Virus record (IMG/VR): IMGVR_UViG_3300047157_000104
Location: 1 to 62,485 of that record
Strand: one strand, 5' to 3'
Source of the DNA: a virus
Taxonomy: Duplodnaviria > Caudoviricetes
DNA: 62,485 nt
Shown here: in pieces, positions 40,986 through 57,212 of the stretch
Layout: each line of letters begins with the position of its first letter
How positions within the stretch are numbered: the stretch's first letter is position 1
Notes under the pieces: model-generated
What the model was told of the DNA's origin: nothing
What the model saw: the letters and a program-made list of their open reading frames with translations, nothing else
Database searches by the model: none
Program-made: the position numbers and the translations under genes

Positions 40986-41228
40986 TTACGCGGATTTGTT
41001 AACTTCTCCTCTGGTGTGAGTAGCTCGGTTATAGGCTATAGAGGTTCTTCGCAATACTCCGTTTGGTTCATGGTGGATGTCGGAATCTGACCTTTGGCCG
41101 TATGCTTGGTTCTCGGCTTTTCGCTTACGTCTCTTAGGCGTCATTGCTGCTGCCTTGTCTCTAGCACGTTTACGTCGTAGCGCAACTGGTGATAGACCTT
41201 GTGAGTTACCTGCTCGTTTTATTGCCAT
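40986..41228 (-). CDS. Basic protein with degenerate HNH-like motif; first gene of the late block
   Basis: Arg/Lys-rich, SDIHH...SIAYNRA; probable start MAIKRAG at 41228. Confidence 0.45.
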   Translation of the reverse strand: MAIKRAGNSQGLSPVALRRKRARDKAAAMTPKRRKRKAENQAYGQRSDSDIHHEPNGVLRRTSIAYNRATHTRGEVNKSA

Positions 41229-41267
41229 GTTAGGATAATCACATGTAAAGGTCACTATTTAAAAAGG

Positions 41268-41312
41268 GTGACAAAAGCCTGTTACTTATATACTCTTATA
41301 GGCTAATGTCAC
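41268..41312. promoter_or_regulatory. 45-bp imperfect palindromic site A (operator/origin-like)
   Basis: GTGACAAAAGCCT...AGGCTAATGTCAC; reverse complement is 35/45 identical to 49719..49763. Confidence 0.7.
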
Positions 41313-41593
41313 TATTTTTGGCACGTTAGATATATAGGGGTTTTGTGTTACTACTATACACCTCGCCGCCCACTTATAAAAGTAAAATGCTATTTTTATC
41401 ACCAGCCCCACCCTATTTAGATCCGTTCCAGATAATTTTATGGCGTTTTCCTGGGCGATTACCTACGATCTTACCTCAGCTATAATTATATTTCCTTAGA
41501 TTATTTCACATATTACTACAGACATTCTATGTATAGCACCTTACAATCTTAATACGAGAGTATCTAGATAATATATATGAATAACAACTACAA

Positions 41594-41833
41594 ATGAATA
41601 ACAAACAAACATTAACTTACGACGAGTACTTAGAAACACTAACAGATTATGCAGCAGATTTATTCTACGAACATGCACCGTCTCCAGCTGACGGATCAGT
41701 CGATCCATTCATAGAAAAGTACATACAAAATGCTTTCAACAATGGAGTAACATATCAACTACTAACAATAGATCTTACACTATTACTCCAACAAAGAACT
41801 AACTACTTAAATAAATTATTCTTAAATCAATAA
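41594..41833 (+). CDS. Early hypothetical protein
   Basis: 79-aa ORF after motif copy 1. Confidence 0.6.
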   Translation: MNNKQTLTYDEYLETLTDYAADLFYEHAPSPADGSVDPFIEKYIQNAFNNGVTYQLLTIDLTLLLQQRTNYLNKLFLNQ

Positions 41834-41874
41834 CTTACAAAATTAATACGAACTAATAAAGATAATACTAACAT

Positions 41875-42126
41875 ATGATATTAACACACAAACACTTTCG
41901 AAACTTACAAACTCTATCTGAAGAGATCGATCTACTCATCGACAACGAAGAATACGTAGAACATCTACAACTGGAAAATCCAGAAGATTACCTAGTCTGC
42001 TACTCTTACATACATGATATATTCAAACTCGCTAAATACTTAATAACTTATGGAATAGAGTTTCAACACTTAAACTGTCCACTATCAGATGAATCATTTC
42101 TACTAATAAACTTTAAACAGAAGTAG
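41875..42126 (+). CDS. Early hypothetical protein
   Basis: 83-aa ORF after motif copy 2. Confidence 0.6.
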   Translation: MILTHKHFRNLQTLSEEIDLLIDNEEYVEHLQLENPEDYLVCYSYIHDIFKLAKYLITYGIEFQHLNCPLSDESFLLINFKQK

Positions 42127-42264
42127 AAAGAGTGTGAGCAATACTACTAACAACAAAACAATAACAAAACAAAGTATATACTTTTACAAACTAAATACGA
42201 TGTAAACTGGATAATACTAATACAAACAAACAAATAATAATTAACTAATAAATAATAATAACTT

Positions 42265-42501
42265 ATGTCAAATCAAAATTCAATCACAAGCAAACGTTTC
42301 GTAATCAGAAAATCACTAATCGGTAAAAACACTGTAATCAAAGTCGAGTTCAAAAATGGTAAAACATTTGAGTACAATCACGACAAAGCGTTCGAAGTAA
42401 TGAAAGATAAACTCGAAGCGATGAACTGCTGGGAAAAGTACAAATCATACACTTCCAGTACAAGTGTTCCAACTCCACTACGTAACGCAGAAGTTGTGTA
42501 G
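42265..42501 (+). CDS. Early hypothetical protein
   Basis: 78-aa ORF after motif copy 3. Confidence 0.65.
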   Translation: MSNQNSITSKRFVIRKSLIGKNTVIKVEFKNGKTFEYNHDKAFEVMKDKLEAMNCWEKYKSYTSSTSVPTPLRNAEVV

Positions 42502-42524
42502 TGTACACTGGAAACTCTAAATCA

Positions 42525-42569
42525 AGTTATGTTGGCACTTAAATGTGAGTTCGATTCTCACCATAACTA
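42525..42569 (+). ncRNA. tRNA minihelix-like element (acceptor stem plus T-arm, no anticodon arm)
   Basis: AGTTATG/CATAACT 7-bp stem, GTGAG-TTCGATT-CTCAC T-arm, 13-nt linker containing GG. Confidence 0.6.
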
Positions 42570-43302
42570 CTATGCAAGTAATATTAAACAACTCAAAAGA
42601 AACGATCGACTTCACTCAAGTAATACTAAAACAAATGGCTGGTGAACTAACTCGCGAGCAAGTACAAGAACTAATAAATAAAGCAAGAAATGAAAAATAA
42701 TATGAATAAAGAATTTGAAACAATACTACGCTGGAATGACAGCACAGAAACATTAGATAGACTATATCGCTACGCAGATGGAACAGAAGTTGTATTCTCT
42801 CGTGGAGTTGATAGAAGAAACGAAAATACAAAATAAATACGAATAAAGTAAGATAATATATATACAATATGAATAGAAGAATACCACACTGGAACAAAGT
42901 AGCTCACCCGTACAAACTAATGTACAAACGTAATCAAGAAACTGGTGCACTTGATATAATCAAAGCATACAACAACGATAAAGGTGAAATCACATCAATC
43001 AAAACAGTAGGTAAAGGATAATTATGCAGAAACATTCACACACAAAATTAAGTAAAGCAATGCTATACACGCAAATAGTGGCAGTATTGTCAGTAGTAAC
43101 AGCAATGGCGTTCGCCATGTACACAATAATAGTAAGATAACCATGAAGAAATCAATATTAAAAGTATTAGCAATAGTAGGATCGATCGAGTCAGTAGGTT
43201 GCTTCTTAGTAGAAGAACCAGCGATGGGTTATATCTTTGCGGTGATCGCAATACCATCAATCCTAGAATTAACTAACATGCACATTAAAGAACAAGAACA
43301 AA

Positions 43303-43566
43303 ATGAAGATAGTAGTAAGTAAACAATCAATAGAAAAAGCAATGCTAACAAAAGTAAATGCAGCTATAAATGTAGCAAAAGACTGCGCTAAGAGAGGTAT
43401 AACAAGTTTTAACATAGCTGTACCTGAAGGTGCTGGCTACACTCAGTATGACTTCATAAATGAAGTAGAACACTTGACAGAACATACAGTATATGCAGGT
43501 CATAGAGCAGTGTCAGGCGAGTCAATTAAGTTTTCAATAGCAGAAGAAGATAGAATATATGGATAA
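43303..43566 (+). CDS. Early hypothetical protein
   Basis: 87-aa ORF within a run of tightly packed short ORFs (about 42570-43860). Confidence 0.55.
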   Translation: MKIVVSKQSIEKAMLTKVNAAINVAKDCAKRGITSFNIAVPEGAGYTQYDFINEVEHLTEHTVYAGHRAVSGESIKFSIAEEDRIYG

Positions 43567-43676
43567 AACACTAATTATATGGGCGCTTGAAACGCTAAGA
43601 GAGCAAGCACTCGACGCAGAAGAAATACAACTCGTAGCAAGAATAACAAAAGAAATTAATAAAGTAAAAGTAAATT

Positions 43677-43862
43677 ATGCAGAAGAACATTAAAAAAGCA
43701 ACACCAGAATTTTTCCACGCCTCAATATTTGACATAGTACACGTAAAAGAAACAGGTCAATCGATCGTGGTAAAAGAAGAAGAGTACTTAAAATTCTATG
43801 ATGATCGTGTAGAGATCGCGTCATCAAGTGAAATACCATCGTGGATAAGAGAAATGTATTAG
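43677..43862 (+). CDS. Early hypothetical protein
   Basis: 61-aa ORF ending just before motif copy 5. Confidence 0.5.
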   Translation: MQKNIKKATPEFFHASIFDIVHVKETGQSIVVKEEEYLKFYDDRVEIASSSEIPSWIREMY

Positions 43863-43903
43863 AATTTACAATACAAATACGAACACTATAAGATAATAAT
43901 AAC

Positions 43904-44122
43904 ATGAATATACAAATTTGCAAATGCGGCGGGCCAATACACCCAGTAAGAATAAAACTATCATACAAAACTTGTGTCAAGTGTAGTACAACTGAACCTT
44001 ATGGCGCAGTACCTATCACTAACCACAAAACAGGTAATAACTTTCAGTTTATGCCAAAGTCACAAGCAGATAGTATTAATAAAGCCGCAAGGCGCAAAGG
44101 TTATGGAACATGCTTAAGATAA
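43904..44122 (+). CDS. DksA/TraR-like C4 zinc-finger protein
   Basis: CKCGGPIHPVRIKLSYKTCVKC resembles the C..CG..I...R....C..C pattern. Confidence 0.55.
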   Translation: MNIQICKCGGPIHPVRIKLSYKTCVKCSTTEPYGAVPITNHKTGNNFQFMPKSQADSINKAARRKGYGTCLR

Positions 44123-44307
44123 TAAAATACACTATATGAATAAAATTAAAACATTAGAATTAAACGACTTCGGAGTACCAAGTAAAATACAAATTACTTA
44201 CACCGATCAAGAACCACAAGTGCTAAATAAAGTAAACACAACTTACTTTTATGCAGACAAGAAGTATAACTCGTACTCTCAATGGTACACAATAAACGGT
44301 AACACTT

Positions 44308-44703
44308 ATGTATAACTACAGTAGCATAAAATTCGAAGATCGCCACAAGGTGGAAGATGCTTTCGCAAAGTCAATGGAAATAATATATGGTATACAAGAA
44401 GTAACTACAACTCGCCAGCGTAGTAATGGTACAAGATCATTTCTTATGCCAACAGGCCAGCGCATCGCTTGCTACAAGTCAGGTTATGTAAGAAAAGTAT
44501 CTCCTACAAGTAGATGGTATCAACTAAACAAGAAGTACCTTAAAGAAACTAGGTGGACCGTAATGAGCAATGACGGTAGTTTATCAACTACAAGATCTAT
44601 GTGTTGGGAGCGTGAGCTAATACTAAGTCCACTTGCACGTATGAAGTATATGCTAGACTTCTACCTTAGAAATTACAAAACAAATACGAATAGTAATCGA
44701 TAA
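44308..44703 (+). CDS. Early hypothetical protein
   Basis: 131-aa ORF; its 3' end runs through motif copy 6. Confidence 0.6.
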   Translation: MYNYSSIKFEDRHKVEDAFAKSMEIIYGIQEVTTTRQRSNGTRSFLMPTGQRIACYKSGYVRKVSPTSRWYQLNKKYLKETRWTVMSNDGSLSTTRSMCWERELILSPLARMKYMLDFYLRNYKTNTNSNR

Positions 44704-44710
44704 TAATAAC

Positions 44711-44902
44711 ATGGAAAATATATTTAACGAACAAACATATCTCTTTGTACTAGACTTTGACGATGGCAAGTGCTATAGATATAGATACAACACGTCAATG
44801 GGTAAGATAGAAGACTTTATAGAGCAAGCAGGTCATAGATTAATGTTTGTAGAGTATATGTTAACAGAAAAACCAATAGTAATGTATGTAAATTATGAGT
44901 AG
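44711..44902 (+). CDS. Early hypothetical protein
   Basis: 63-aa ORF after motif copy 6. Confidence 0.55.
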   Translation: MENIFNEQTYLFVLDFDDGKCYRYRYNTSMGKIEDFIEQAGHRLMFVEYMLTEKPIVMYVNYE

Positions 44903-45289
44903 AATTATATCACCGTGGGAATTAGCCTACACAAAGTTAAAAGAACACTACAGCAAAGATCAAATAGACGATATGCTATGGTGTGAAGTTGAAGAATTAT
45001 TAATCAGAGAAGAAAGAGATGCAGAAGAAAATTGAAGACATTGCTAGCGGTGTTGCTATACACATGCAAGAGCTGCTACTAGACACGGTGGATTGGCAGA
45101 TAGACGATCTACCACACGAAAAAAGACAAGAGCTAATTAAGCTATCTGTAGAAAAACTACAAAGCTTAATAAGCTAAAGACACACCCAGCGAATAAATAA
45201 CAAACCTCGGTAAATTGAATCAAATCAAGGCAAGCGTTCCTTCCTCCGGAATTGTTTCATGAGCAAAGGTAGCAAATGACTGGGTATAT

Positions 45290-45466
45290 GGGCATAAATG
45301 GATTTTAAATAGCGATTAAAGGCGTAATCCTGACGAGGTGTAATAAGCGGCTCGATGAAGGTTTACTTATCCGTCATAGTGATGACACCCGACCAGGAGG
45401 CAATGAAGCTATGTAGGTAAGTAATAAAGCTATGGTAGGCAGGTTCGATTCCTGCCATGTCCACCA
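45290..45466 (+). ncRNA. Short tmRNA/tRNA-Ala-like structured RNA (177 nt)
   Basis: 5' GGGCATA pairs with 3' CATGTCC-A-CCA (G3:U70, A73, mismatch at pair 7); T-arm GCAGG-TTCGATT-CCTGC; unpaired TGGATT D-loop mimic; ATAGC/GCTAT helix. Confidence 0.6.
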
Positions 45467-45523
45467 TTTACAATATAAATACGATGACAGTAGGATATTA
45501 AGTATAAAATTAAATAAAAATAT

Positions 45524-45787
45524 ATGAAAAGAATTACATTATTACACAGGCTAAAGCCAGAAGTTAAAGCAGCATTAGAAAAAAACAAACTAGATTACGA
45601 TTTCTCTATCGACCTTATCTACAAAGAGTTAGATGAAGTTGTAGTGTACCAAGATCTTAAAATGTCTACTATATACTCTATATACTTATTTAGTAGCATA
45701 GATATGTATGAAGCTGATGTGTATGACATCAGGTGGGGCGGTAATTTATTCTTAGAAGATAACGATTTAACAATAGAAACATTATGA
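45524..45787 (+). CDS. Early hypothetical protein
   Basis: 87-aa ORF after motif copy 7. Confidence 0.55.
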   Translation: MKRITLLHRLKPEVKAALEKNKLDYDFSIDLIYKELDEVVVYQDLKMSTIYSIYLFSSIDMYEADVYDIRWGGNLFLEDNDLTIETL

Positions 45788-46014
45788 GCAAAACAAAAGA
45801 ATTACCAGAGTGGTTTGATGGTATCAAATACTCTGAAGGCGAAACGATCACTAACCCGTTTTCAGGCGATAGCTATGACTGTAGCGCAGATGAAGCAGCT
45901 ATGTACGACCTAATTATGGGTGCAAACATGACTAAAAACTGGACAATAGTACAAAAAGGTTGTGACTGGTTTAGAAAAGCAAACCCTGAAGCATATATGG
46001 TGCTACTAGATTAA
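45784..46014 (+). CDS. Conserved phage hypothetical protein
   Basis: 76 aa (NPFSG...WFRKANPEAYMVLLD). Confidence 0.6.
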   Translation: MSKTKELPEWFDGIKYSEGETITNPFSGDSYDCSADEAAMYDLIMGANMTKNWTIVQKGCDWFRKANPEAYMVLLD

Positions 46015-46053
46015 TTTACAAATACAATACGAAACAAGTAAGATAATAATAAT

Positions 46054-46260
46054 ATGAATAAATTAACTGGATTTGAAAGGTTCTGCATAAGTTCTGCATT
46101 AGATATGTGGATCAAAGAACAAGAACAACACATCGTAAAAGCTGAAGCAGCTGGTAAACGAACAATAATAGCACAAGGCTATTGGAAAATGGTCGGTGAA
46201 GACCTAGAGCGTAAAATAACTAAATTAACATATAAAAAACACTTAGAAGATGTCAGATAA
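46054..46260 (+). CDS. Early hypothetical protein
   Basis: 68-aa ORF after motif copy 8. Confidence 0.55.
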   Translation: MNKLTGFERFCISSALDMWIKEQEQHIVKAEAAGKRTIIAQGYWKMVGEDLERKITKLTYKKHLEDVR

Positions 46261-46714
46261 AATTATAATAGAAGAAGTATTATGGGAAAAGCTTGAAGAA
46301 AAAGGTATTAAGCAACCATACGACACAGATCATGAAGAACAATTAGAAAAAGTATTAGATCATTGGGATGCTAGCATAACGGGCGACTGGGATGACAGCT
46401 GCAATAGATGGTTTTATATGGAATCAACAGCCGACAGCTATGAATTATACGTAGCTACATATGGTAAACCTAATGATATTAGTATAGGTGAAAATGTATA
46501 CTACTACGAAAACGGTTGGCTAGAAGAGCTACCTAACTGCATAAAAGACGGTGCTAATATATTTTTCTCAGAGCTAGAAACTGGTAACTACGAGTTTATA
46601 GATGCTATTAACGAAACGTATGAGCATTACTTCGAAGACAAAGTAGAAGAAATGCAAGATGAACTACTAGATCAAGGTTGGATACTTCAAAACGACATGG
46701 TGATCGATGCCTAA
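46250..46714 (+). CDS. Highly acidic hypothetical protein
   Basis: 154 aa, very D/E-rich with few basic residues. Confidence 0.6.
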   Translation: MSDKIIIEEVLWEKLEEKGIKQPYDTDHEEQLEKVLDHWDASITGDWDDSCNRWFYMESTADSYELYVATYGKPNDISIGENVYYYENGWLEELPNCIKDGANIFFSELETGNYEFIDAINETYEHYFEDKVEEMQDELLDQGWILQNDMVIDA

Positions 46715-47117
46715 TATTAAAGAACTTGACATAGTGTATATGAACATAGCTGGTGAAATTAGCCAGCTAAGTAAATGCAAAAGAAAGAAGGTCGGTGCTA
46801 TTATAGTTAAAGATAACAATATATTATCCTTTGGTTATAACGGTACGCCTTCTGGCTTCTGCAACACTTGCGAGGAAGACGACAGGACAAAATGGTCTGT
46901 ACTACACGCAGAGTCTAACGCTATAGTTAAAGTAGCTAAATCTACCAACAGTTCAAGTGGATCTACGCTGTACTGTACGTTGTCTCCCTGTAGAGATTGC
47001 AGTAAGTTGATAATACAAGCAGGTATAATTAAGGTAGTATACAAAGAAGTTTATGAAGGATCAACCGAAGGGCTTGATCTTATGGAAGAATCAGGAATAA
47101 AAATAATAAAAATATAA
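46707..47117 (+). CDS. dCMP deaminase (ComEB family)
   Basis: KVGAIIV, GYNGTPSG, HAESNA, PCRDC zinc motifs. Confidence 0.93.
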   Translation: MPNIKELDIVYMNIAGEISQLSKCKRKKVGAIIVKDNNILSFGYNGTPSGFCNTCEEDDRTKWSVLHAESNAIVKVAKSTNSSSGSTLYCTLSPCRDCSKLIIQAGIIKVVYKEVYEGSTEGLDLMEESGIKIIKI

Positions 47118-47581
47118 TGGGTACAAGAAGTTTAACAAGAATAATACCAAGACAAGAAGGTTTGTCTTACAGTGAAGGTCATACTAGAGCTGAGTTAGCG
47201 CTAGTAAACATATATCAACAGTACGATGGTTATCCAGAGTATATGGCTGTTGAGTATGCAGAGTGGTTGAAAGATATAAAGATCATTAATGGCTTAGGCG
47301 GTAACAAAAATCTTAATGAGATAGCTAATGGAGCAGGTTGCTTTGCAGCTCAGTTCATAGCTAAATTCAAAGATCGAGCTGGTCAAATGTATCTACAAGC
47401 AATAGACAACGAGATCGGTTGGGCTGAGTATATATATACTTTATACCCTAAAGCAGATCACGACACTTATATGTCTATATATAAAGTTTCTACTAGAACT
47501 GTTATATTTGTAGGTAAGCCAGAAAAAGCTCTACAACGGTACGATGAAAATTACAAAACAAATACGAAACAAGAAGGATAA
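47117..47581 (+). CDS. Conserved phage protein (MGTRS...YDGYP type), function unknown
   Basis: 154-aa ORF; its 3' end runs through motif copy 9. Confidence 0.65.
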   Translation: MGTRSLTRIIPRQEGLSYSEGHTRAELALVNIYQQYDGYPEYMAVEYAEWLKDIKIINGLGGNKNLNEIANGAGCFAAQFIAKFKDRAGQMYLQAIDNEIGWAEYIYTLYPKADHDTYMSIYKVSTRTVIFVGKPEKALQRYDENYKTNTKQEG

Positions 47582-47601
47582 TAATATAAAAAATATACAA
47601 A

Positions 47602-48438
47602 ATGAAAAAAGCCATGTTAGCACACAAGTTCGATCAATCACGTATCGACTTCAAAAGACCAATTTACATTCAAGCAAAGCTTGACGGCGTTCGCTGCTTA
47701 TTCACGAAAGACGGTGCATTCTCACGCAACGGCAAGCAGTTCATGAACGTACGTCACATTGAAATGGCACTCAAGCCTTTCTTTGCTGAACAACCAGATG
47801 TAGTACTCGATGGCGAGCTTTACAATCACAAGCTAAAGCGCGACTTCGAAAAGATCATATCACTAGTACGTAAGCAAAAGCCTACAGATGAAGACAGGCT
47901 CGATGCTCAGCATCTAGTACAGTTTCACGTATATGATTACTTCGATGGTGTGATGTATGACAACTATCAAGCGCGTATGCAGTTACTTGTAAACGCAGGT
48001 TTCTACGATGCACAGATCAAGCACGTTCCTGCATTACTAGTTGATAGCTACAATTACGCTAGAGTTCAGCACGAAGAGTTTTTATCACTCGGTTACGAAG
48101 GCTCAATTATAAGAAATGGCGATGGTATATACAAGCACGGTAGATCTTACGATCTAATGAAGTTCAAAGACTTCAGCGACACCGAAGCTACTATCATCGA
48201 TTATGTTACTGGTAAAGGTAAACGGACTGGCACGCTTGGCAAGTTCATTATGCAAGATGACGACGGTGTAGTGTTCGGTTGTCCTCCGGGCAAGGGCTAC
48301 TCGTACAAGGATCTTAAAACAATGCTCAAGAACGTAGATTCTTTTATTGGCAAGCGCGCTACCTTTACTTATTTTCAAAGAACTAAAGCTAACAGCTACA
48401 GACACCCACTATTTAAATGTATTAGAAATTATGAATAA
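47602..48438 (+). CDS. lig: ATP-dependent DNA ligase
   Basis: KLDGVR, LDGEL, FHVYD, EGSIIR, LMKFK, RHPLF. Confidence 0.93.
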   Translation: MKKAMLAHKFDQSRIDFKRPIYIQAKLDGVRCLFTKDGAFSRNGKQFMNVRHIEMALKPFFAEQPDVVLDGELYNHKLKRDFEKIISLVRKQKPTDEDRLDAQHLVQFHVYDYFDGVMYDNYQARMQLLVNAGFYDAQIKHVPALLVDSYNYARVQHEEFLSLGYEGSIIRNGDGIYKHGRSYDLMKFKDFSDTEATIIDYVTGKGKRTGTLGKFIMQDDDGVVFGCPPGKGYSYKDLKTMLKNVDSFIGKRATFTYFQRTKANSYRHPLFKCIRNYE

Positions 48439-48610
48439 TATAACAGATTACAGAGCAGTTGGCCTTGCTGAAGGATTTGAAGAAGGCACTGAAGAAGAAA
48501 TAATTGAAGCTTGGCAACATCTACATGATACTGGCTTAGCTTACACACTACAAGGCTGGTTCGGAAGAGCAGCATCAAACTTAATAGAACAAGGAATTAT
48601 AAATGAATAA
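48431..48610 (+). CDS. Small conserved phage protein
   Basis: MNNITDY...AWQHLHDTGLAYTLQGWFGRAA; ATG overlaps the ligase end. Confidence 0.55.
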   Translation: MNNITDYRAVGLAEGFEEGTEEEIIEAWQHLHDTGLAYTLQGWFGRAASNLIEQGIINE

Positions 48611-49115
48611 ATTATTAATAGCAACTATAGCAGTGAGCTTAGCGATGCCAAAAAGCAACGTGAGTAATGCTATACACAAGTCCGCTCCGGCAGACGAGCA
48701 AGTAAAAGTAACGATCGAGCCATCATGGGAAGATTTAATCGATGCGATAATCTACGTAGAAAGTAGAGGTAACGACTCTGCTATTGGCGATCGAGGTAAA
48801 GCTGTAGGCTGTTTACAAATACAACCTATATGCGTAAGAGAAGTTAATAGAATACTGCGTAAGCATAAGTCAAACGTAAGATACTCATTACAAGATCGTT
48901 ACAGTAGAGAAAGATCCATACAAATGTTTAACATTGTTGCAGAGCAGTATGCATGTTGTGAGTATGTTACATTTATGGAGTATGCAGAGATCGTATCTAG
49001 AAGATGGAATGGCGGTCCTCGCGGAGATAAAAAGAAAGCAACAATTAAATATTGGTACAAAGTTAAACCACATTTACAAAACAAATACGAAGAACATAAG
49101 ATAACAAACACATGA
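48603..49115 (+). CDS. Lysozyme-like/lytic transglycosylase with N-terminal signal sequence
   Basis: AIIYVESRG...GCLQI...WNGGP; hydrophobic N-terminus. Confidence 0.75.
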   Translation: MNKLLIATIAVSLAMPKSNVSNAIHKSAPADEQVKVTIEPSWEDLIDAIIYVESRGNDSAIGDRGKAVGCLQIQPICVREVNRILRKHKSNVRYSLQDRYSRERSIQMFNIVAEQYACCEYVTFMEYAEIVSRRWNGGPRGDKKKATIKYWYKVKPHLQNKYEEHKITNT

Positions 49116-49591
49116 ACATATTTTATTTAGACGCAGATCCAGATACGGCTGCTAGGTTACAATACAATAAACACGTTGTAAAAATGGTTCTTGAGTCAGC
49201 TCAAATGCTATGCTCGGCGCATCATTTTCATGGCAATGGTGACAACGTTCCATACAAAGTAAGCCACATTAACCATCCAAGCACCATCTGGACTCGTTCT
49301 AATACTAAGCATTACAATTGGTTATACCAACATATGATGTCTTTAGGAGATGAATATACGTTCAGATATGGCAAAACACATTTGACAATTACTAAATGCA
49401 GAGATGCTCTTAAATGGCCTCCTATGGGCATGACTACGTCAGATTTTAAGCAACCTCCACAAGCAATGCCAGATGAATACAAAAGCGCATGTAGTATAAA
49501 GGCCTACTGGAGATACTATATTGCTGAGAAACACACAGTAGCAAACAAAAATGAGAAAATTTATGAAGGAGATTATAATAAAATTATTTAA
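49112..49591 (+). CDS. Pyrimidine-dimer DNA glycosylase-like protein (T4 endonuclease V superfamily)
   Basis: MNIFYLD...KHVVKMVLESAQML...HINHPSTIW...PPQAMPD. Confidence 0.7.
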   Translation: MNIFYLDADPDTAARLQYNKHVVKMVLESAQMLCSAHHFHGNGDNVPYKVSHINHPSTIWTRSNTKHYNWLYQHMMSLGDEYTFRYGKTHLTITKCRDALKWPPMGMTTSDFKQPPQAMPDEYKSACSIKAYWRYYIAEKHTVANKNEKIYEGDYNKII

Positions 49592-49718
49592 AAGAATAAG
49601 TAATTTTTTTAATGGATTAGTTGCCGCATTAGAAGATGCCGCATATGTAAATGAAGTTAAAAAAGTAACTAAAACAAAGAAAAAGAAAACAAAAAAATAA
49701 AGTAAATATAACATGGCT

Positions 49719-49763
49719 ATGACAATAGCCTATAAGGATTAATAAGTAACTAGCTAATGTCAC
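49719..49763. promoter_or_regulatory. 45-bp imperfect palindromic site B overlapping the ATG of the HTH gene
   Basis: ATGACAATAGCCT...AGCTAATGTCAC; inverted homologue of 41268..41312. Confidence 0.7.
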
Positions 49764-50374
49764 ATGATAGAAATATAAAATGGCTGCATGATAAACGTGT
49801 TATTACACGGTGTTGGCCATGGGAGGATTTACCTAGCAACGAGACTAATCTGTACATGTATTATCAAGAAGGTACATTTCAATGTTATACATTGTTTGCA
49901 AGTAAAGCTAAAATTACTACATACAAATCTTTAAAATGGCATTTTTTAGTTTTAATGTTTTTAAACGAAGACGAAACAGCAGAGTTTATGGAATCTATAT
50001 TTAGATTTATAGCTGATAAAGAAAATGGTTTTGTAACTTTTTTTATAAAACAAACAGTATTAAATAGCATGATAGAAAATGTACTTATGTCACATGGTAA
50101 CCCACCTGTAAATAAAATGCGTAAAGTTATATTTAAACCTGCGGCTTGGCATCTAACATTAAGTGAAAAGCTTAGTATTGTTGGCAAACTTATAGGTAGA
50201 AATAAATTAAACAAAGAAATGCTTTATCAAAGCATGTTAGATATAAACGACGAAGGACAAAGCATAACAACTAAAAAACTAGCAAACCTGCTAAATGTAA
50301 CACAGAGAACAATATATCGCCACATGTGCGATACGCTAAGAACAGAAAAACAAATATTAAATGAAGAGCTATAA
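49757..50374 (+). CDS. DNA-binding protein with C-terminal HTH
   Basis: ITTKKLANLLNVTQRTIYRHM. Confidence 0.7.
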   Translation: MSHDRNIKWLHDKRVITRCWPWEDLPSNETNLYMYYQEGTFQCYTLFASKAKITTYKSLKWHFLVLMFLNEDETAEFMESIFRFIADKENGFVTFFIKQTVLNSMIENVLMSHGNPPVNKMRKVIFKPAAWHLTLSEKLSIVGKLIGRNKLNKEMLYQSMLDINDEGQSITTKKLANLLNVTQRTIYRHMCDTLRTEKQILNEEL

Positions 50375-51116
50375 CGTAAGTAATTACATAAAATATAAAA
50401 CCGATCTTAACAGATCAATGCCTGACGAAGAAAAAGACTATGCTACTCTCACTAGAGACGAACTTATAGTTAGGTTTCTACCTTTAGTAGAGAACTTAGC
50501 ACGTAAATTTTCTACGTCTCAACAAGCATCTGGTGTATTAAGCATCAATGATCTTATACAAGAAGGATCTGTAGGCTTAATAGCTGCGGTTGATAGAATC
50601 GACTGGGTAAAGCTATGCGAATCAGATGACATAGAAAAAACTATAAAGTCTTTTTTAAGCAAAAGAATAAAGGGTGCAATACGAAGAGCTGTCGATATAA
50701 ACAGAGGAAACATACGTATACCTGAGCACAAGCTTAATGAGATAAGAAAAGACTTTGGTAAAAACAGACAAATGGTTGAAATGTTTTTTAACAGTATATT
50801 TTTAAGTATTGATGCAAAGCCTAATCAAGATGAGAATATGGCATATCAAATTGCAGATACATCAGAGCCATACAATAAAGAATTACTTAATTTGTATTTA
50901 AAAGGCTTACTCAAGAAACATCTCAACGACAAAGAATACAACGTACTTAGGTTAAGCTACGGTTTAGATTGTGACAAGCATAGCGCAAAACAAATAGCAG
51001 AACAGTTAGATATAAAAGGTACGTCAGCTTATGTTAGAGTTTCACAACTAAAAAAGCAAGCCGTAGAAAAACTTATTGATAACGTAGATCACTCTCAAGT
51101 GCTTGATTATCTTTGA
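50361..51116 (+). CDS. Phage RNA polymerase sigma factor (sigma70 family)
   Basis: Region 2: LPLVENLARKF...DLIQEGSVGLIAAVDR...IRIP; region 4: VLRLSYGL...KQIAEQL...RVSQLKKQAVEKL. Confidence 0.88.
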   Translation: MKSYNVSNYIKYKTDLNRSMPDEEKDYATLTRDELIVRFLPLVENLARKFSTSQQASGVLSINDLIQEGSVGLIAAVDRIDWVKLCESDDIEKTIKSFLSKRIKGAIRRAVDINRGNIRIPEHKLNEIRKDFGKNRQMVEMFFNSIFLSIDAKPNQDENMAYQIADTSEPYNKELLNLYLKGLLKKHLNDKEYNVLRLSYGLDCDKHSAKQIAEQLDIKGTSAYVRVSQLKKQAVEKLIDNVDHSQVLDYL

Positions 51117-51175
51117 GTTAAACGTTAAAAACTAAAATAAATGTGTAATTATAATAATATCAAACCAACATACCT

Positions 51176-51712
51176 ATGACGTTAAACGACAAATTAACAG
51201 AAATCCAAACTAGATTTAAATCAAAAAAATCTAGGTTCAACTCATTCGGCAAATACCACTTTCGCAGTGCCGAAGACATTCTCGAAGCAACAAAACCCTT
51301 TTTAAAGGAGCTAGGCGTAACAGTTACAATTAATGAAGAATTAATAGCTGATAGCCCTATGCCTGTAATAAAGACTACAGCATCAGTAAACGACGGCAAA
51401 AGTGCTATACACGCAGCTGCCATTGTAGGTGTTGATCTTAATCAAAAAGGTATGCAAACTCCTCAACAGTTTGGATCTGCCTCGAGTTATGCTAAAAAAT
51501 ATGCGTTAGGTAACTTATTTTTAATTGATGACACTCAAGACAGTGACGCTGCCAATACACACGGCAAAGGCTCTGCAAGTACGCTAACGTCTGTAAAAGA
51601 TCCTGCGTTTGCAAAAGCTAAAGCTTATGTTAAAAACGGCGGCAAGCTTGATGCTATCAAGGCAAAATACAAATTAAGTGCTGAAGTTGAGAAAGCACTA
51701 ACAACATTATAA
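51176..51712 (+). CDS. ERF-family single-strand annealing protein
   Basis: FNSFGKYHFRSAEDILEA...QQFGSASSYAKKYALGNLFLIDD..DSD. Confidence 0.85.
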   Translation: MTLNDKLTEIQTRFKSKKSRFNSFGKYHFRSAEDILEATKPFLKELGVTVTINEELIADSPMPVIKTTASVNDGKSAIHAAAIVGVDLNQKGMQTPQQFGSASSYAKKYALGNLFLIDDTQDSDAANTHGKGSASTLTSVKDPAFAKAKAYVKNGGKLDAIKAKYKLSAEVEKALTTL

Positions 51713-52444
51713 ATGGATAAAAAACAAATAATAGAAAAGCTACGTGACGATGAAAGCTATTACGGTAAGTTTGGTAAACAGTACTTAAGTAATAGCGACA
51801 TTAGCACATTATTAAAAAATCCTTTAGCGCTAGGTACACCTAGTAAACCTTCAGCTGCCTTTTTAGTAGGTGGTTACTTTCATACTGCAATACTTGAGCC
51901 ACATAAGCTTAAGAAGTATAAAGTTATCGAAGCGTCTACTAGGAATACTAAAGCGTATAAAGAGATGTCAGGTGGTGAGTTATGTTTGTTGCAACAAGAG
52001 GTTGACAATATAGAGTTATTGACAGATAAGATCATGTCTAACGATATATGCAGAGATCTTATACGCAAAGGAGAAATAACTTACGAAGAACCTGGCATTA
52101 CGGAGATAAATGATCATATGTGGAAAGGTAAGGCTGATATAGTTAATCACAGCGAAAAGCTAGTGGTTGATCTTAAAACCACCAACGACATAAGCAAGTT
52201 TAGATCTTCAGCTTGGAAATACAATTATGATAGCCAAGCATATATTTATAGCAAGATATTTGGTTATGAGTTAATATTTATAGCAATAGATAAAAACACA
52301 CACCAAATAGGTTTATTTGACTGCTCTACTGAATTTATAGAGCGTGGCATTGAAAAGGTTAGCAAAGCCACAGAAGCATATGAGTTGTTCTACAATACAG
52401 AAAACTTTGACGCTGAACAATACTTTATTAACAAAACTTTATAG
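51713..52444 (+). CDS. PD-(D/E)XK exonuclease (RecE/ExoVIII-like)
   Basis: LSNSDI, GGYFHTAILEP, KGKAD, VDLKTT, YDSQAYIY. Confidence 0.8.
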   Translation: MDKKQIIEKLRDDESYYGKFGKQYLSNSDISTLLKNPLALGTPSKPSAAFLVGGYFHTAILEPHKLKKYKVIEASTRNTKAYKEMSGGELCLLQQEVDNIELLTDKIMSNDICRDLIRKGEITYEEPGITEINDHMWKGKADIVNHSEKLVVDLKTTNDISKFRSSAWKYNYDSQAYIYSKIFGYELIFIAIDKNTHQIGLFDCSTEFIERGIEKVSKATEAYELFYNTENFDAEQYFINKTL

Positions 52445-52502
52445 TTTTACAAAATAAATACGATAACCTCAAGATAATAATTAAAAATAAAAATTAAAAT
52501 TT

Positions 52503-52679
52503 ATGGCAAGAACCAGAAAAAACCCAACAAGACTATGCACAGTAACTGGCGTGAAGACCAGCGAAAGCAATTTTTACAAAAACCAAAACCACGTTAAAGC
52601 TGTGGATAACATCAGGCGTAATACCGGTGCTACAAAAGATCAGCTTAGACGTATGTTTAATCAATTAAAAACTTATTAA
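52503..52679 (+). CDS. Small basic hypothetical protein (58 aa, not in ORF track)
   Basis: MARTRKNPTRLCTVTG...NQLKTY; follows motif copy 11. Confidence 0.5.
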   Translation: MARTRKNPTRLCTVTGVKTSESNFYKNQNHVKAVDNIRRNTGATKDQLRRMFNQLKTY

Positions 52680-52681
52680 TT

Positions 52682-52993
52682 ATGGCAAGTATTATAGCAA
52701 CAAGCATTGATCTTACTAAGATACCCAAAGATAAGATCATAAACGGAAAAAAGGGTAAGTATATACCAATAACTATAACGTTGAACGACGAAGTAGATCA
52801 GTTTGGTAATCAAGGTCCAGTGTCTGTTCAGCAGACTAAAGAAGAACGAGAAGCAAAAACTGAAAAGGTTTACCTAGGCAATGTTAAAGTTGTCTGGTCT
52901 AACGGAGATAACGTAGCACCAGCGCCTAGAGACGGTATGGCAGCTCAAGGTAACGTAGTTACTAAACAAGTAGAAGAAGACCTACCATTCTAG
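52682..52993 (+). CDS. ssb: Single-stranded DNA-binding protein
   Basis: IDLTKIPK...DQFGN...YLGN; C-terminal EEDLPF tail. Confidence 0.75.
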   Translation: MASIIATSIDLTKIPKDKIINGKKGKYIPITITLNDEVDQFGNQGPVSVQQTKEEREAKTEKVYLGNVKVVWSNGDNVAPAPRDGMAAQGNVVTKQVEEDLPF

Positions 52994-52994
52994 C

Positions 52995-53087
52995 ATGGAG
53001 CTATGTGAAATGTGCGGGCAAGAAATGTCACGGGAGGAACATGCCTTCTGTGACATATGCCCAGATTGTAGAGAAATAGAATACTAA
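52995..53087 (+). CDS. Tiny Cys-rich zinc-finger peptide (30 aa)
   Basis: MELCEMCGQEMSREEHAFCDICPDCREIEY. Confidence 0.45.
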   Translation: MELCEMCGQEMSREEHAFCDICPDCREIEY

Positions 53088-53104
53088 CAATTTAATTAAA
53101 TAAA

Positions 53105-54808
53105 ATGCAAACAACAGAGATCAACGGGTTTACTATTGACCAGTTCAATCAGTACAGTCTAGAAAGCGGCAAGACTCAGGGCGTATGTCCTCTTTGCTCC
53201 CATACTAGAAAACCTGAGAATAAGAAAGCAAAATGTGCTTCATATGATTGGGATCGTGGTCTCGGCACTTGCCACAATTGTAACACATCTTTTCAGTTAC
53301 ACACGTATCAAAGAAAAGGTGCTAGTGAGCGTGTTTATGTTAGACCTGAGGTTACTAAGTATTTACCAGTTAAAGACAAAGTAACTGAATGGTTTGAAAC
53401 AAGAGGTATATCTCAAAAAACCTTAGATGATGTACAAGTCGGACAAGGTTCTGAGTATATGCCACAAACTGGTAAAACAGAAAACACGATACAGTTTAAT
53501 TATATCATGGGTGACCAATTAATTAATGTTAAATATAGAGATGGTCGAAAGAATTTTAAACTGTATAAAGGTGCTGAAAAAGTATTTTACAATATCAATA
53601 GCATAATAGGTTATGATAGTTGTGTTATAACAGAGGGCGAAATGGATGTGTTAGCATTTCATGAAGCTGGTGTTAAAAACGTAGTGTCAGTACCGAATGG
53701 TGCAACGCTAACTAATAATAACCTAGATTACTTAGATAATTGTATAGATTACTTTGAAGATAAAGAAAGAATACTATTAGCAATAGATAAAGACGAACCA
53801 GGCCAAATGCTTCAAGCTGAGCTTGTGCGTAGGCTAGGTGCTGAAACTTGTTTCATAGTAGACTTCGACGATTGCAAAGATGCTAATGAATATTTACTAA
53901 AGCACGGTAAAGATAAGCTAGCTGAATCAATAACAAAGGCCAGGCCTTATCCTCTTGAAAACGTAACTACGTTTAAAGATATAGAGAATGAGATAACAGA
54001 CTTTGTTAAAAATGGTTTTAAACCAGGCTTCCAAGTTGGTCTACCTAATTTTGACGAAATATTTTCTACGTATACTAAACAGTTTATAACTGTAACAGGT
54101 ATACCTAGTTCAGGTAAGTCAGATTTTGTAGATCAAATGGTAGTAGGTTATAACCAACAATATGGTTGGAAGACTGCTTTTGCAAGTCCTGAAAATCAAC
54201 CAACATACCTACACGCACATAAGCTTATGCGTAAAGTGTGGGGCGACATGCCCAATGTAGGAGATATTGGTGGTGCTAAATGGAACGAAGTTGCAGAGCA
54301 CGTCAACGATCATTTCTATTTCATAGACATGGATAAATACGATCTTGATTCTGTATTACGAAAAGGTGCAGAGCTTGTAAAAAGAAAAGGTATCAAATGC
54401 TTAGTTATCGATCCTTATAATAAGGTTAGAGATATAAATGCAAAGACTGATGATGTAAACCGTTATACAATGGATTACTTAATGAAGATCGAAACATTTG
54501 CTAAGAAGTATGATTGCTTAGTTTTTATAGTTGCGCACCCTACTAAAATGATGAGGGGTCAAGATGGTAAAATCCAAGAACCTACAATGTACAATATAAA
54601 AGGCGGTGGTGAATGGTATGATGCCAGTTACCACGGCCTTCTTGTACACAGAGATTACGAAGCTGGTACCACTAAAGTCAAAGTGCTTAAAGTTAAGTTT
54701 CAAAATCTTGGTGAGAACGGAGCTGAGGCACATTTTACTTGGGACAGAGCTTCAGGTAGATTTGTACCTGAAATGTCTATAAAACAAGATGATTTACCTT
54801 GGGAGTAA
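53105..54808 (+). CDS. T7 gp4/Twinkle-like DNA primase-helicase
   Basis: Zn finger CPLC...CHNC, TOPRIM ITEGEMD and KDANE, Walker A TGIPSSGKS, VIDPY, VAHP. Confidence 0.93.
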   Translation: MQTTEINGFTIDQFNQYSLESGKTQGVCPLCSHTRKPENKKAKCASYDWDRGLGTCHNCNTSFQLHTYQRKGASERVYVRPEVTKYLPVKDKVTEWFETRGISQKTLDDVQVGQGSEYMPQTGKTENTIQFNYIMGDQLINVKYRDGRKNFKLYKGAEKVFYNINSIIGYDSCVITEGEMDVLAFHEAGVKNVVSVPNGATLTNNNLDYLDNCIDYFEDKERILLAIDKDEPGQMLQAELVRRLGAETCFIVDFDDCKDANEYLLKHGKDKLAESITKARPYPLENVTTFKDIENEITDFVKNGFKPGFQVGLPNFDEIFSTYTKQFITVTGIPSSGKSDFVDQMVVGYNQQYGWKTAFASPENQPTYLHAHKLMRKVWGDMPNVGDIGGAKWNEVAEHVNDHFYFIDMDKYDLDSVLRKGAELVKRKGIKCLVIDPYNKVRDINAKTDDVNRYTMDYLMKIETFAKKYDCLVFIVAHPTKMMRGQDGKIQEPTMYNIKGGGEWYDASYHGLLVHRDYEAGTTKVKVLKVKFQNLGENGAEAHFTWDRASGRFVPEMSIKQDDLPWE

Positions 54809-55065
54809 AAAAGAAAGTTGAAAATTATTCAATGACAGAAAATGAAATGCAAGCTTTTAAATGGTGTGTAAGAAACGGTATATGTATAAAACCTAGAGAA
54901 GTAGCTTGGAGAACTAGAAAATACTGTGTCGATATAGAAACAGGTAGGTATCCAAATAGAAAACTAATTGCTACTACACCAGAACACTATTCTTACTTAG
55001 CCGCACAAAAAAAAGCTGCTGAATATAGAACATATTATTACAAAAAGAATGCGGACAAAGTTTAA
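54799..55065 (+). CDS. Hypothetical protein
   Basis: 88-aa ORF coupled to both neighbours. Confidence 0.55.
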   Translation: MGVKKKVENYSMTENEMQAFKWCVRNGICIKPREVAWRTRKYCVDIETGRYPNRKLIATTPEHYSYLAAQKKAAEYRTYYYKKNADKV

Positions 55066-55690
55066 AAATGCAAGCGAAGCCTTCGATTACTTCTACATAA
55101 AAATAAAAGACAAAGGTGTTGATTTTGATAGCACTAAAGCATTATTTAATGTAGGGTTTTATATAGCTGACCCTGTTAATAACAAAATAAAATCTGGCTT
55201 CAGAGGCTGGAGTAAAGAGTATGCCAATGCCGAATGGCAATGGTACTTATCTGGTGATCCAAATATAAAAAAGCTAGGATCATTATACGGTAAGATTCCA
55301 AGTATATGGAAAAAAATGGCTGACAGACACGGCAATGTTAATAGCAACTACGGCTATCAATGGAAACGTAATAGCCAATTACAATATGTAATAAACAAAC
55401 TAAAGAACGATCATAATACTAGACACGCAGCAATAAGCATATATGATGGAAAAGAATGGGAACATTATAAAAATGATACTCCTTGCACATATGCAGTTCA
55501 GTTTAGTATAATAGATGGCAAATTAAATATGTCAGTATATATGAGATCTAATGATCTATGGTACGGCTTTTGCAATGATCAATACCAATTTAGTATGCTA
55601 CAGAAAACGGTAGCAGGAGAATTAAATATACCGGTCGGTTGGTATTACCACCACGCACATAACTTACACTTATATAACGATAAAACTTAA
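55049..55690 (+). CDS. Thymidylate synthase superfamily enzyme, dCMP hydroxymethylase/methylase-like
   Basis: NSNYG, catalytic TPCT, MRSNDLWYGFCND, NLHLY. Confidence 0.8.
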   Translation: MRTKFKNASEAFDYFYIKIKDKGVDFDSTKALFNVGFYIADPVNNKIKSGFRGWSKEYANAEWQWYLSGDPNIKKLGSLYGKIPSIWKKMADRHGNVNSNYGYQWKRNSQLQYVINKLKNDHNTRHAAISIYDGKEWEHYKNDTPCTYAVQFSIIDGKLNMSVYMRSNDLWYGFCNDQYQFSMLQKTVAGELNIPVGWYYHHAHNLHLYNDKT

Positions 55691-56493
55691 TGTACTATTT
55701 ATACCACATTCCTGGTAAAAAGATTGGCGTAACACGTGATCTTGATACCAGAGTTACCCTTGTGCAAGGCTACAAGGAGGGAGAGTACGAAGTTCTAGAC
55801 CAGTCAGAAGATATAGATTACATATCAGACTTGGAGTTAGAACTTCAACAGTCTTATGGCTATCGCAAAGACATACAACCTTATAAACAACTATTTAATA
55901 AAATGAAGATAAACGCAACAGAACAAACCTCAACGTTCCCCGTGCCTATAAATAAATTAAAAGGTAGGCTAATGGATAATATAGGTAAGAATTGGCAGAC
56001 AGAGTTTGGCCAGTTTGAGATAAACGAACAAACAATACCATGGATAGTAGATAACGCAAAGACGTCCATGTTTAATACAGAAAGATGCTACATATATAAT
56101 AAAGCATATTGGAATATGTTTCAGAACAAAGACCCTAAATCAGGATGGGTTCCTAGCTCAAGCAATGGTACTTACGTAGTACAAGAGCCTGACAAAGACA
56201 AATATTACTTTGGTTTAATAAGACAATGGGCGCAAGACAAAGGCATATACGATAAAGGCGACACAAAAACGCAGTACATAAAACTTGCTGAAGAGTTTGG
56301 TGAGCTTGGTAAAGCATTGCTAAATGATGATCAACCAGAAGTAATAGATGCTGTTGGCGATATGGTAGTTGTATTGACTAACCTAGCACATCAAAGAGGA
56401 GTTACTATAGAGTCATGCATTAAGTCAGCATACGGCGTGATAAGTAAACGAACAGGTAAAATGATTAACGGAACATTTGTAAAAGATAACTAA
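55690..56493 (+). CDS. Fusion protein with C-terminal MazG-like NTP pyrophosphohydrolase (N-terminus loosely GIY-YIG-like)
   Basis: KLAEEFGEL...IDAVGDMVVVL...AYGVISKRTG; N-terminal YYLYH...KIGVT. Confidence 0.75.
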   Translation: MYYLYHIPGKKIGVTRDLDTRVTLVQGYKEGEYEVLDQSEDIDYISDLELELQQSYGYRKDIQPYKQLFNKMKINATEQTSTFPVPINKLKGRLMDNIGKNWQTEFGQFEINEQTIPWIVDNAKTSMFNTERCYIYNKAYWNMFQNKDPKSGWVPSSSNGTYVVQEPDKDKYYFGLIRQWAQDKGIYDKGDTKTQYIKLAEEFGELGKALLNDDQPEVIDAVGDMVVVLTNLAHQRGVTIESCIKSAYGVISKRTGKMINGTFVKDN

Positions 56494-56494
56494 T

Positions 56495-56773
56495 ATGAAA
56501 GATTATAGAATAAAAACTGAAGACCCTATCGTACAGAAAATAATTAAAAAGATCGACGAACGCAGTGAGTTTGGTATGAAAAAGTATGGCCAATCTATGA
56601 TGCAAGAAGTCGTAAACAGAGAAAAAGATCTTGGTGCATTTATTGTCGACGTACAAGAAGAATTAATGGATGCAATATTATATTTAGAGTCAGCAAGGCA
56701 TTGTCTGCAAGATGAGATCGAAGATGCTATGCTATCAAGACTTACTGAAGATAAAAATGAAGAAGTCTTATAA
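56495..56773 (+). CDS. Small all-alpha NTP-pyrophosphatase-like protein
   Basis: RSEFGMKKYG...QEELMDAILYL (EE..D metal-binding pattern). Confidence 0.5.
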   Translation: MKDYRIKTEDPIVQKIIKKIDERSEFGMKKYGQSMMQEVVNREKDLGAFIVDVQEELMDAILYLESARHCLQDEIEDAMLSRLTEDKNEEVL

Positions 56774-57212
56774 AAGAAAAAGTAAAGGTCCTGTCAGAGC
56801 TAAAAAGACTAGCTATGACGGGATAACCTTTGCATCTGGTTTAGAGAAGTATATGTATAAAGCTTTAAAAGAAGCTAACATACACGCTCTATATGAGGGA
56901 GAAACGTTTGAACTTGTTGAAGCTTTTGATTTTCCTTTTGAATGCTACGAAAGGTGTGGCAATGGAAAAGGAGAATATAAAAACAGAGGCAATAAAAAGG
57001 TTTTAAACATTAAGTATACTCCAGATTTTATAGGTAAAGGCTTTATAATAGAATGCAAAGGTAGAGCAAATGAATCTTTTCCACTTAGATGGAAAATGTT
57101 TAAGAGCTTAATAGCAAGCAGCAAGATAGGACCTTGCACACTATATAAACCTCAAAATCAAAAAGAATGCGACGAAACAATAAACTTAATACTGAGCAGC
57201 AAAAACAGCTAG
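56757..57212 (+). CDS. T7 endonuclease I-like Holliday junction resolvase
   Basis: FASGLE...YTPDF...IIECKG; ATG at 56757. Confidence 0.8.
   Translation: MKKSYKRKSKGPVRAKKTSYDGITFASGLEKYMYKALKEANIHALYEGETFELVEAFDFPFECYERCGNGKGEYKNRGNKKVLNIKYTPDFIGKGFIIECKGRANESFPLRWKMFKSLIASSKIGPCTLYKPQNQKECDETINLILSSKNS

Follow-up and report, generated by a model that had tools for sequence, protein, structure and literature searches.

What does a tripartite sequence repeated along the early genes of an uncultured phage do, and which factor reads it? The sequence, TTACAA-N4-AATACGA-N9-GATAATA (hereafter the motif), recurs between positions 41541 and 52479 of IMG/VR record IMGVR_UViG_3300047157_000104, the whole of which is the window analysed in this work (62,485 bp, linear, with a completeness estimate of 97%). 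An earlier note on this DNA had proposed that the motif is an undescribed promoter class read by the phage sigma factor, a virion-delivered factor or a host alternative sigma, and that its copies may also act as crossover sites for cassette exchange. Our analysis led us to conclude that the motif is very probably a real promoter class for a sigma-dependent RNA polymerase, apparently undescribed, and that its most likely reader, a view that we hold tentatively, would be the host core polymerase together with the phage's own sigma factor.

Eleven copies of the motif in the window

Allowing up to two mismatches, the motif matched 11 times in the window, always on the + strand, and in 100 dinucleotide-preserving shuffles the mean number of matches was 0.00 and the largest 0. 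Eight of the 11 copies are exact and each of the other three carries a single mismatch within an outer box, while the AATACGA box and both spacer lengths are constant throughout; the mismatch scan and the shuffles thus confirm the description that had first drawn attention to this region. At three mismatches one more weak match appeared on the - strand (61048-61080), within an open reading frame (ORF), and it was excluded from the count. The copies are as follows.

41541-41573, + strand: copy 1, exact, the first after the divergent control region; ORF start at motif position 54
41835-41867, + strand: copy 2, exact; ORF start at position 41
42184-42216, + strand: copy 3, exact; start of ORF 42265-42501 at position 82
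42826-42858, + strand: copy 4, first box ATACAA; overlaps the 3' end of ORF 42690-42836
43866-43898, + strand: copy 5, exact; ATG of ORF 43904-44122 at position 39, predicted leaderless
44673-44705, + strand: copy 6, exact; overlaps the 3' end of ORF 44308-44703, with the ATG of the next ORF at position 39
45468-45500, + strand: copy 7, last box GATATTA; 1 nucleotide (nt) after the CCA end of a stretch resembling transfer-messenger RNA (tmRNA)
46016-46048, + strand: copy 8, exact; ATG at position 39
47551-47583, + strand: copy 9, exact; overlaps the 3' end of ORF 47117-47581, with the DNA ligase gene downstream
49074-49106, + strand: copy 10, last box GATAACA; overlaps the 3' end of ORF 48603-49115, with the ATG of a pyrimidine-dimer glycosylase-like gene at position 39
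52447-52479, + strand: copy 11, exact; heads the replication block (small ORFs, primase-helicase and the following genes)

Called ORF starts fall at motif positions 39-82, that is, 5-48 nt downstream of the motif, in agreement with the distance of about 5-50 nt to an ATG reported before. Two details had to be amended: the gap between the outer boxes measures 20 nt instead of about 21, and the copies lying in the 3' end of an upstream ORF are four in all, since the one at 42826 joins those already recognized at 44673, 47551 and 49074.

Conservation across the phage clade

An exact copy of the motif was present in at least 120 IMG/VR stretches. When the loci of 80 relatives were fetched via homologues of the phage sigma gene (60-95% identical), 72 of them contained the motif at up to three mismatches, and all of the 239 copies lay on the sigma strand; the eight motif-free loci mostly had short sequence upstream of sigma. 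The same result was obtained with records reached independently through a giant virion protein, as all five of five carried both the sigma gene and the motif, the latter in both of its variants. Across the clade the consensus loosens to TTACAR-N4-AAYACGR-N9-GATAATA, and the variants at positions 6 (A or G), 13 (T or C) and 16 (G or A) are frequently mixed inside one genome. The motif is therefore a family-wide trait of this clade. The phage itself is an uncultured marine Flavobacteria phage, and it belongs to a large uncultured clade of Flavobacteria podophages, marine and freshwater, which are very abundant in marine metagenomes: sigma homologues number at least 8000, the best 120 of them all on contigs of up to 74 kb.

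Outside the clade the early signals differ. By the large terminase, the relatives of the phage are MW202828.1 (63% identity), Elemovirus (46%) and podophages of Cellulophaga and Tenacibaculum, and the motif at up to three mismatches was found in none of five sister phages. The nearest GenBank relative, MW202828.1 (L129), carries 14 perfect copies of a 16-bp palindrome, GTGTCGTTAACGACAC, at positions 43745-55169, each about 20-35 nt upstream of an early-gene start, and has no sigma gene; no long repeated motif was detected in the early region of Elemovirus. Sister clades can thus be told apart by their early signals, the tripartite motif here and the 16-bp palindrome in MW202828.1, and such different signals suggest a rapid turnover of early transcription specificity among crAss-related phages.

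In three of 80 relatives fetched through GroEL (L304 at 2989, L318 at 583 and L360 at 435) a motif copy also faces the GroEL, or late, strand, and these late-facing copies stand back to back with the first early copy.

Architecture of the motif and its predicted start site

A logo was built from 222 unique copies of the motif, in which the positions of the search pattern, GATAAT included, are biased by selection. Within the pattern, GATAAT was invariant or nearly so, with A at -11 and T at -7. More telling are two positions outside it: A occupies position 7 in 0.90 of the copies, and a purine occupies position 39 in 0.99, with an A-rich stretch over the next 20 nt. When copies with a start codon at 37 or 39 are set aside, the remaining 173 have A in 93, G in 78 and T in 2 at position 39. 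Counted from the T of GATAAT, position 39 is 7 nt away, as is standard between a -10 hexamer and the start of transcription. An ORF starts exactly at position 39 in 43 of the 222 unique copies, including 4 of the 11 in the window, which implies that the corresponding mRNAs are leaderless (predicted leaderless or with short leaders).

On these grounds GATAAT (motif positions 27-32) would be the -10 hexamer, and transcription would start at the purine of position 39, giving rise to mRNAs that are leaderless or have a short A-rich leader. In this register TTACAA falls at -38 to -33 and AATACGA at -28 to -22, and TTACAR together with AAYACGR would be the specificity determinant replacing the normal -35 box. 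The two boxes may represent a tandem repeat of TACRA with a period of 11 bp, as is typical where activator sites stand in for a -35. The 20 nt between the outer boxes do not match the 16-18 nt that separate a sigma-70 -35 from its -10, and a generic sigma-70 scan of 41000-60500 yielded 72 sites against 72.6 in shuffles. No inverted repeat or hairpin was found in the motif, and its three boxes are not mutually complementary.

The proposal of a promoter class thus gains indirect support from the co-orientation of motif and genes, the family-wide conservation, the GATAAT with a purine 7 nt further on, and the start codons located at that purine. The motif would drive pre-replicative gene cassettes by means of a bacterial-type RNA polymerase. 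No paper describing it was found in the literature, of which the supplement and logos of the phi14:2 study (10.1101/2020.03.07.982082), not covered here, may hold related motifs. A 33-bp signal with a predictable start site offers a handle for annotating the early genes of the clade, a template for the in vitro study of Bacteroidetes polymerase with a foreign sigma, and a probe for leaderless expression.

Genomic context

Genes lie on the - strand at 1-41400 and 60300-62485 and on the + strand at 41500-60300. The - strand block encodes a crAss-type muzzle C-terminal domain (PF25729, E 2.8e-11), capsid (the match to the crAss capsid family is weak), portal, large terminase, GroES/GroEL, tail fibres and lysis genes. 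The + strand block opens with about 25 small ORFs, none of which matches any family, followed by dCMP deaminase, ligase, the glycosylase-like gene, a DNA-binding protein of 205 amino acids (aa) and the sigma-70-family factor, and then by ERF, exonuclease, primase-helicase, thymidylate synthase, MazG and ribonucleotide reductase.

Some features of this region deserve mention on their own. No DNA polymerase gene was recognized among the 36 large ORFs, despite the presence of primase-helicase, ERF, exonuclease, ligase and nucleotide-metabolism genes. The non-coding stretch 45290-45466 (+ strand), which ends 1 nt before copy 7, has a T-arm, acceptor and CCA-like end and matched the Rfam tmRNA model at 23.8 bits (E 7e-8 in a small search), against a gathering score of 47; another stretch amid the early cassettes, 42492-42569 (+ strand), gave a match resembling transfer RNA (tRNA) at 30.3 bits, against a Rfam gathering score of 29. 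ARAGORN made no calls in the window, neither for the tmRNA-like nor for the tRNA-like stretch. The early protein encoded at 42265-42501 (+ strand, 78 aa) has 70 matches in the loci of the clade and no Pfam or PHROG family, and homologues of it occur also in four host loci (L227, L244, L239 and L273).

The phage sigma factor as candidate reader

The genes and sites on which the identity of the reader turns are listed below.

50361-51116, + strand: sigma-70-family factor with regions 2 and 4, candidate reader of the motif, with which it co-occurs
49757-50374, + strand: 205-aa DNA-binding protein, overlapping the sigma gene; C-terminal part a TetR-like helix-turn-helix
49720-49763, + strand: 44-bp palindrome TGACAnnAGCC-N19-GGCTnnTGTCAC, with the start codon of the 205-aa protein within its right arm
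41268-41311, - strand: second copy of the palindrome, in the divergent control region and facing the late strand
41228-41243, - strand: leftward promoter-like site TGTGATTAT-N6-ATG with an extended -10, preceding the first late-strand gene

The presence of sigma tracks the presence of the motif, a correlation that holds at the level of the clade: the motif accompanies sigma in 72 of 80 loci, in five of five records and in the single complete record (1/1) among five tested, and PF04542 was found in the window's own record (1/1) and in none of the five sister phages, which are also motif-free. A search of 50,697 phage records for homologues of the phage sigma gave no match. We also counted in favour of the phage sigma that promoters of the host type are essentially absent from the window, where TAnnTTTG lies upstream of only 2 of 82 called genes and the full TTG-N19-TAnnTTTG pattern gave 4 matches against 1.76 expected, none of them well placed. 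If the phage sigma is the reader, it would feed back on its own expression, and the first round would be kick-started by weak recognition by the host or by a virion-delivered protein.

Several observations weigh against this preference and keep it tentative. In at least six relatives the sigma start codon follows a motif copy at a distance of 38-40 nt, and in about eight more the motif is located roughly 380-580 nt upstream of sigma; sigma is therefore itself a product of this promoter class, and a loop read by sigma needs a first round from elsewhere. Nor was sigma found to be made independently of the motif, as it is motif-driven in relatives and host-type promoters are essentially absent. 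The genes headed by the motif are seemingly the earliest ones, namely the family-less small ORFs beside the divergent control region. The co-occurrence of sigma and motif may derive from a single evolutionary event, and since the box variants are mixed within genomes, covariation with sigma could not be shown and was dropped as a line of evidence. In addition, an exact copy of the motif precedes an orthologous membrane-anchored protein of about 460 aa in five genome records of hosts, and a search of low sensitivity detected no homologue of the phage sigma in five such motif-bearing host genomes. Finally, the palindrome and the leftward TGTGATTAT site provide alternative targets for sigma.

These last two elements are conserved. 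The gene of the 205-aa protein adjoins sigma in 76 of 80 relatives, and in relatives the right arm of the palindrome lies at its start codon in 68 of 68 cases, both arms being present in 65 of 68. The model of the protein has a predicted local distance difference test score (pLDDT) of 90.2, and only its last 58 residues (148-205) match TetR-like helix-turn-helix domains, a weak match (Z 6.6) in the range of common arrangements. The position of the palindrome at the start codon and the TetR-like domain would make it most simply the protein's own operator. The leftward site has a hexamer of the same kind as that of the motif and an ATG at the predicted start site, and relatives show TGTGATAAT there. 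Candidate late-promoter words occurred at chance level, as was the case for ATATAAGT (9 against 6.5 expected) and AATAGTGAC (12 against 20 expected); GCTAATGTCAC as such was also at chance level, yet it led us to the palindromic element.

One further record bears on the sigma gene: G311, the 129.5-kb IMG/VR record behind L080, holds two sigma homologues, 71% and 65% identical to that of the window. It is about twice the usual length and may represent two related phage genomes joined during assembly.

Host factors and the copies on host chromosomes

A possible but less probable explanation than the phage sigma is that the host machinery reads the motif as an early promoter, through a non-canonical sigma-A holoenzyme, an alternative sigma or an activator of the tandem site. 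In that case the phage sigma would be made early and would go on to read the palindromic element and also the leftward TGTGATTAT promoter, from which the late strand would be launched. This explanation accommodates well a sigma gene that is directly driven by the motif in at least six relatives and the small ORFan genes of early type that the motif heads. One copy of the palindromic element at the operon of sigma and the 205-aa protein, and another at the head of the late strand, likewise fit a sigma that drives the late genes and its own operon.

The same explanation draws support from the geometry of the motif. The earlier note held that the motif fits neither the sigma-70 nor the Bacteroidetes consensus; this stands for the sequences of the boxes, which are unlike TTG and TAnnTTTG, but not for their spacing, since the 20 nt between the outer boxes are those of TTG-N20-TAnnTTTG in four of four phi14:2 promoters. 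In addition, the part of the phi14:2 paper available describes the use of the tripartite middle promoter by the host polymerase and the in vitro transcription of T7 A1 by the C. baltica polymerase (10.1101/2020.03.07.982082).

A further argument for a host reader comes from the bacterial chromosomes. A scan of 185,579 species genomes returned 61 stretches with the exact motif, many of them tiny phage-like contigs binned into metagenome-assembled genomes; at least 15 copies are located on chromosomal contigs of Flavobacteriaceae or Bacteroidetes of up to 812 kb, always directly upstream of a gene on the same strand (exact copies upstream of genes in a recurrent chromosomal locus of Flavobacteriaceae: L224, L227, L230, L242, L246, L225, L244, L234, L239 and L273). 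In the five copies that precede the 460-aa protein the three boxes are invariant and the letters of N4 and N9 vary, which indicates selection on the boxes in a few host lineages. One locus carries a divergent gene for an extracytoplasmic function (ECF) sigma; the adjacency is not conserved, and by our own reasoning an ECF-type reading of the boxes was ruled out on spacing. Other copies are found in similar loci, which encode proteins of 120 or 130 aa, a 651-aa trypsin-like peptidase and TPR or MORN proteins, and the host locus adjoins mfd in two of those examined (L282 and L244). For 25 proteins of the host loci no homologues were found in 3.0 Mb of phage-clade loci; Pfam gave nothing for the 460-, 120- and 130-aa proteins, the Atlas no named cluster for the 130-aa protein, and in the 651-aa protein PADLOC recognized the protease domain alone.

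These copies are rare. Five host genomes have one or two copies each at up to two mismatches, with none for the reversed control pattern, and at up to one mismatch copies occur in 5 of the 301 genomes of the family of host genome G001 (control, 0). This rarity argues against a widespread host regulon, the more so as the phage clade is so abundant and diverse. The sister phages that lack sigma also lack the motif, and Flavobacteria are not known to have a group 2 or group 3 sigma able to read a GATAAT-type -10. The host copies can be taken to mean either that a rare host factor reads the boxes or that host genes respond to a phage factor. Of the three readers proposed at the outset, the phage sigma is the one favoured by co-occurrence in the clade, and both its motif-driven expression and the copies at host promoters count against it.

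The second of these meanings leads to an explanation that we regard as doubtful, namely that the promoter is readable only with the phage sigma and that the host copies constitute a sensor of infection, for which a phage promoter was borrowed, or else part of something satellite-like. If this were true, conserved chromosomal genes in some Flavobacteriaceae would be wired to fire when a phage of this clade infects. In the mirror reading the promoter would belong to a small dedicated regulon of the host, and the phage clade would copy it to start infection. With the host copies, promoter mimicry between phage and host becomes a testable question.

Search for a polymerase or a virion-delivered factor

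Less probable still is that a phage-specific polymerase or a virion-delivered factor reads the motif, as occurs in crAss-like and N4-like phages. This explanation is suggested by the crAss-like structural module described above (the PF25729 match and the weak capsid match), by the giant virion-type protein conserved across the clade, by a genome without host-type promoters, and by the 14 palindromes at the early genes of the sister phage MW202828.1, which recall the hairpin promoters of N4.

The statement that no phage RNA polymerase is visible held under profile, motif and fold checks. No polymerase family of Pfam or PHROGs was present in the 36 large ORFs, and a DSDGD in the 692-aa ORF was discarded as a polymerase motif because it is not conserved. 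In relatives the giant protein is a single ORF of 2400-3400 aa (2778 aa in the closest), and in the window it is broken up, at 1-8295 (- strand), into four ORFs: one of 2022 aa, two small ones and one of 467 aa that continues beyond the window start. It features an invariant HExxH, a HAD-like DFDDT motif and a conserved C-terminal domain modelled as all-alpha. No DxDxD and no invariant Asp were found within its first 2000 residues. The 2022-aa ORF showed no sequence match in the PDB, no match among phage records and no DxDxD, and only unnamed clusters in the ESM Atlas. In the PDB, a profile of 32 giant proteins matched coiled-coil chains and nothing else. For the conserved C-terminal 760 aa (pLDDT 73.6) Foldseek gave no PDB match at E <= 0.001, a negative that covers this folded domain and is incomplete in that the variable N-terminal 2000 aa were not folded. 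To these results is added the geometry of the motif itself, that of a sigma-type -10 with its start site, and a dedicated polymerase or virion factor thus appears improbable.

The motif and the borders of gene cassettes

We compared 41400-53000 with 280 loci of relatives. Of the 626 internal ends of similarity blocks, 15% fell within 20 nt of a motif, against 7% for random positions (about twofold; the maximum in 1000 random draws was 10.4%), and the blocks tend to begin at the motif. The contigs of four RNA runs revealed no transcript starts or ends; in one of these contigs, 273 nt were swapped for another 233 nt from position 41867, the last base of copy 2. These breakpoints fit cassettes made up of a promoter plus its gene. 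The suggestion of crossover sites draws weak support from the roughly twofold excess of block ends; a promoter conserved together with its downstream gene gives the same pattern.

It is very improbable that the motif is not primarily a promoter but a protein-binding or recombination site at cassette borders, or a signal for RNA processing or translation: the block boundaries, the replacement at copy 2 and the encoded ERF/exonuclease recombination pair suit such a role, but the boundary pattern has the explanation just given, the boxes are not self-complementary, the distance from motif to ATG varies between 5 and 48 nt yet peaks exactly at the predicted start site, and all copies are co-oriented with genes, the host copies preceding genes too.

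Comparison with known systems

Among the systems to which the motif can be compared are the hairpin promoters of N4 type; the motif has no inverted repeat, in contrast to MW202828.1, which does have palindromes. The PeSLs (promoter early stem-loops) of T4-type phages consist of early promoters repeated on either side of small variable ORFs, an arrangement that could lend itself to modular shuffling. The window resembles them in the repetition of the motif around small variable ORFs; it differs in that no stem-loop or terminator lies beside the motif (of 9 terminator-like sites in 41000-60500, against 8.9 in shuffles, every one is on the - strand) and in that the enrichment of boundaries is only about twofold.

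In the middle promoters of T4 that depend on MotA and in class II promoters of the PhoB type, the place of the -35 is taken by a box or a tandem repeat that lies some 10 bp upstream of an otherwise normal -10. The motif shares with them a specific upstream box or tandem repeat in place of the -35. In contrast to these systems, the large ORFs of the window include no homologue of MotA, AsiA or a response regulator, and the 205-aa protein, which is the sole DNA-binding candidate, would have a palindromic site of its own.

In phage sigma cascades such as those of gp28 of Bacillus phage SPO1 and gp55 of T4, a phage sigma redirects the host core polymerase to promoters that depart from the host consensus, and the sigma gene is transcribed from early promoters of the host type. 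A similar redirection is proposed here. The window differs from both in that the search for host-type promoters gave none and that the sigma gene is located within the region driven by the motif.

The crAss-like Cellulophaga phage phi14:2 offers the nearest parallel. According to the part of the study that could be consulted, its middle promoters have an extended tripartite motif whose outer blocks act as -35 and -10, its middle and late promoters are used by the host sigma-A polymerase, and its early genes are transcribed by a virion polymerase and share no common motif (10.1101/2020.03.07.982082). Like the phage studied here, phi14:2 is a Flavobacteria phage with a crAss-like virion module and promoters near start codons, and both have 20 nt between the outer blocks, in the form of TTG-N20-TAnnTTTG in four of four phi14:2 promoters (the upstream regions of g070, g075, g108 and g110 show TTG...TAnnTTTG) and of TTACAA-N20-GATAATA here. 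The sequences of the boxes are unrelated to the TTG...TAnnTTTG and spacer block of phi14:2, and a search with up to five mismatches of positions 50001-100000 of phi14:2, half of its genome, gave only three irrelevant matches. The two also differ in temporal class and in reader, since a sigma factor is present here and no polymerase was detected. Together, these traits make the tripartite middle promoter of phi14:2, from a related phage and with the same architecture and spacing, the closest known case to the motif.

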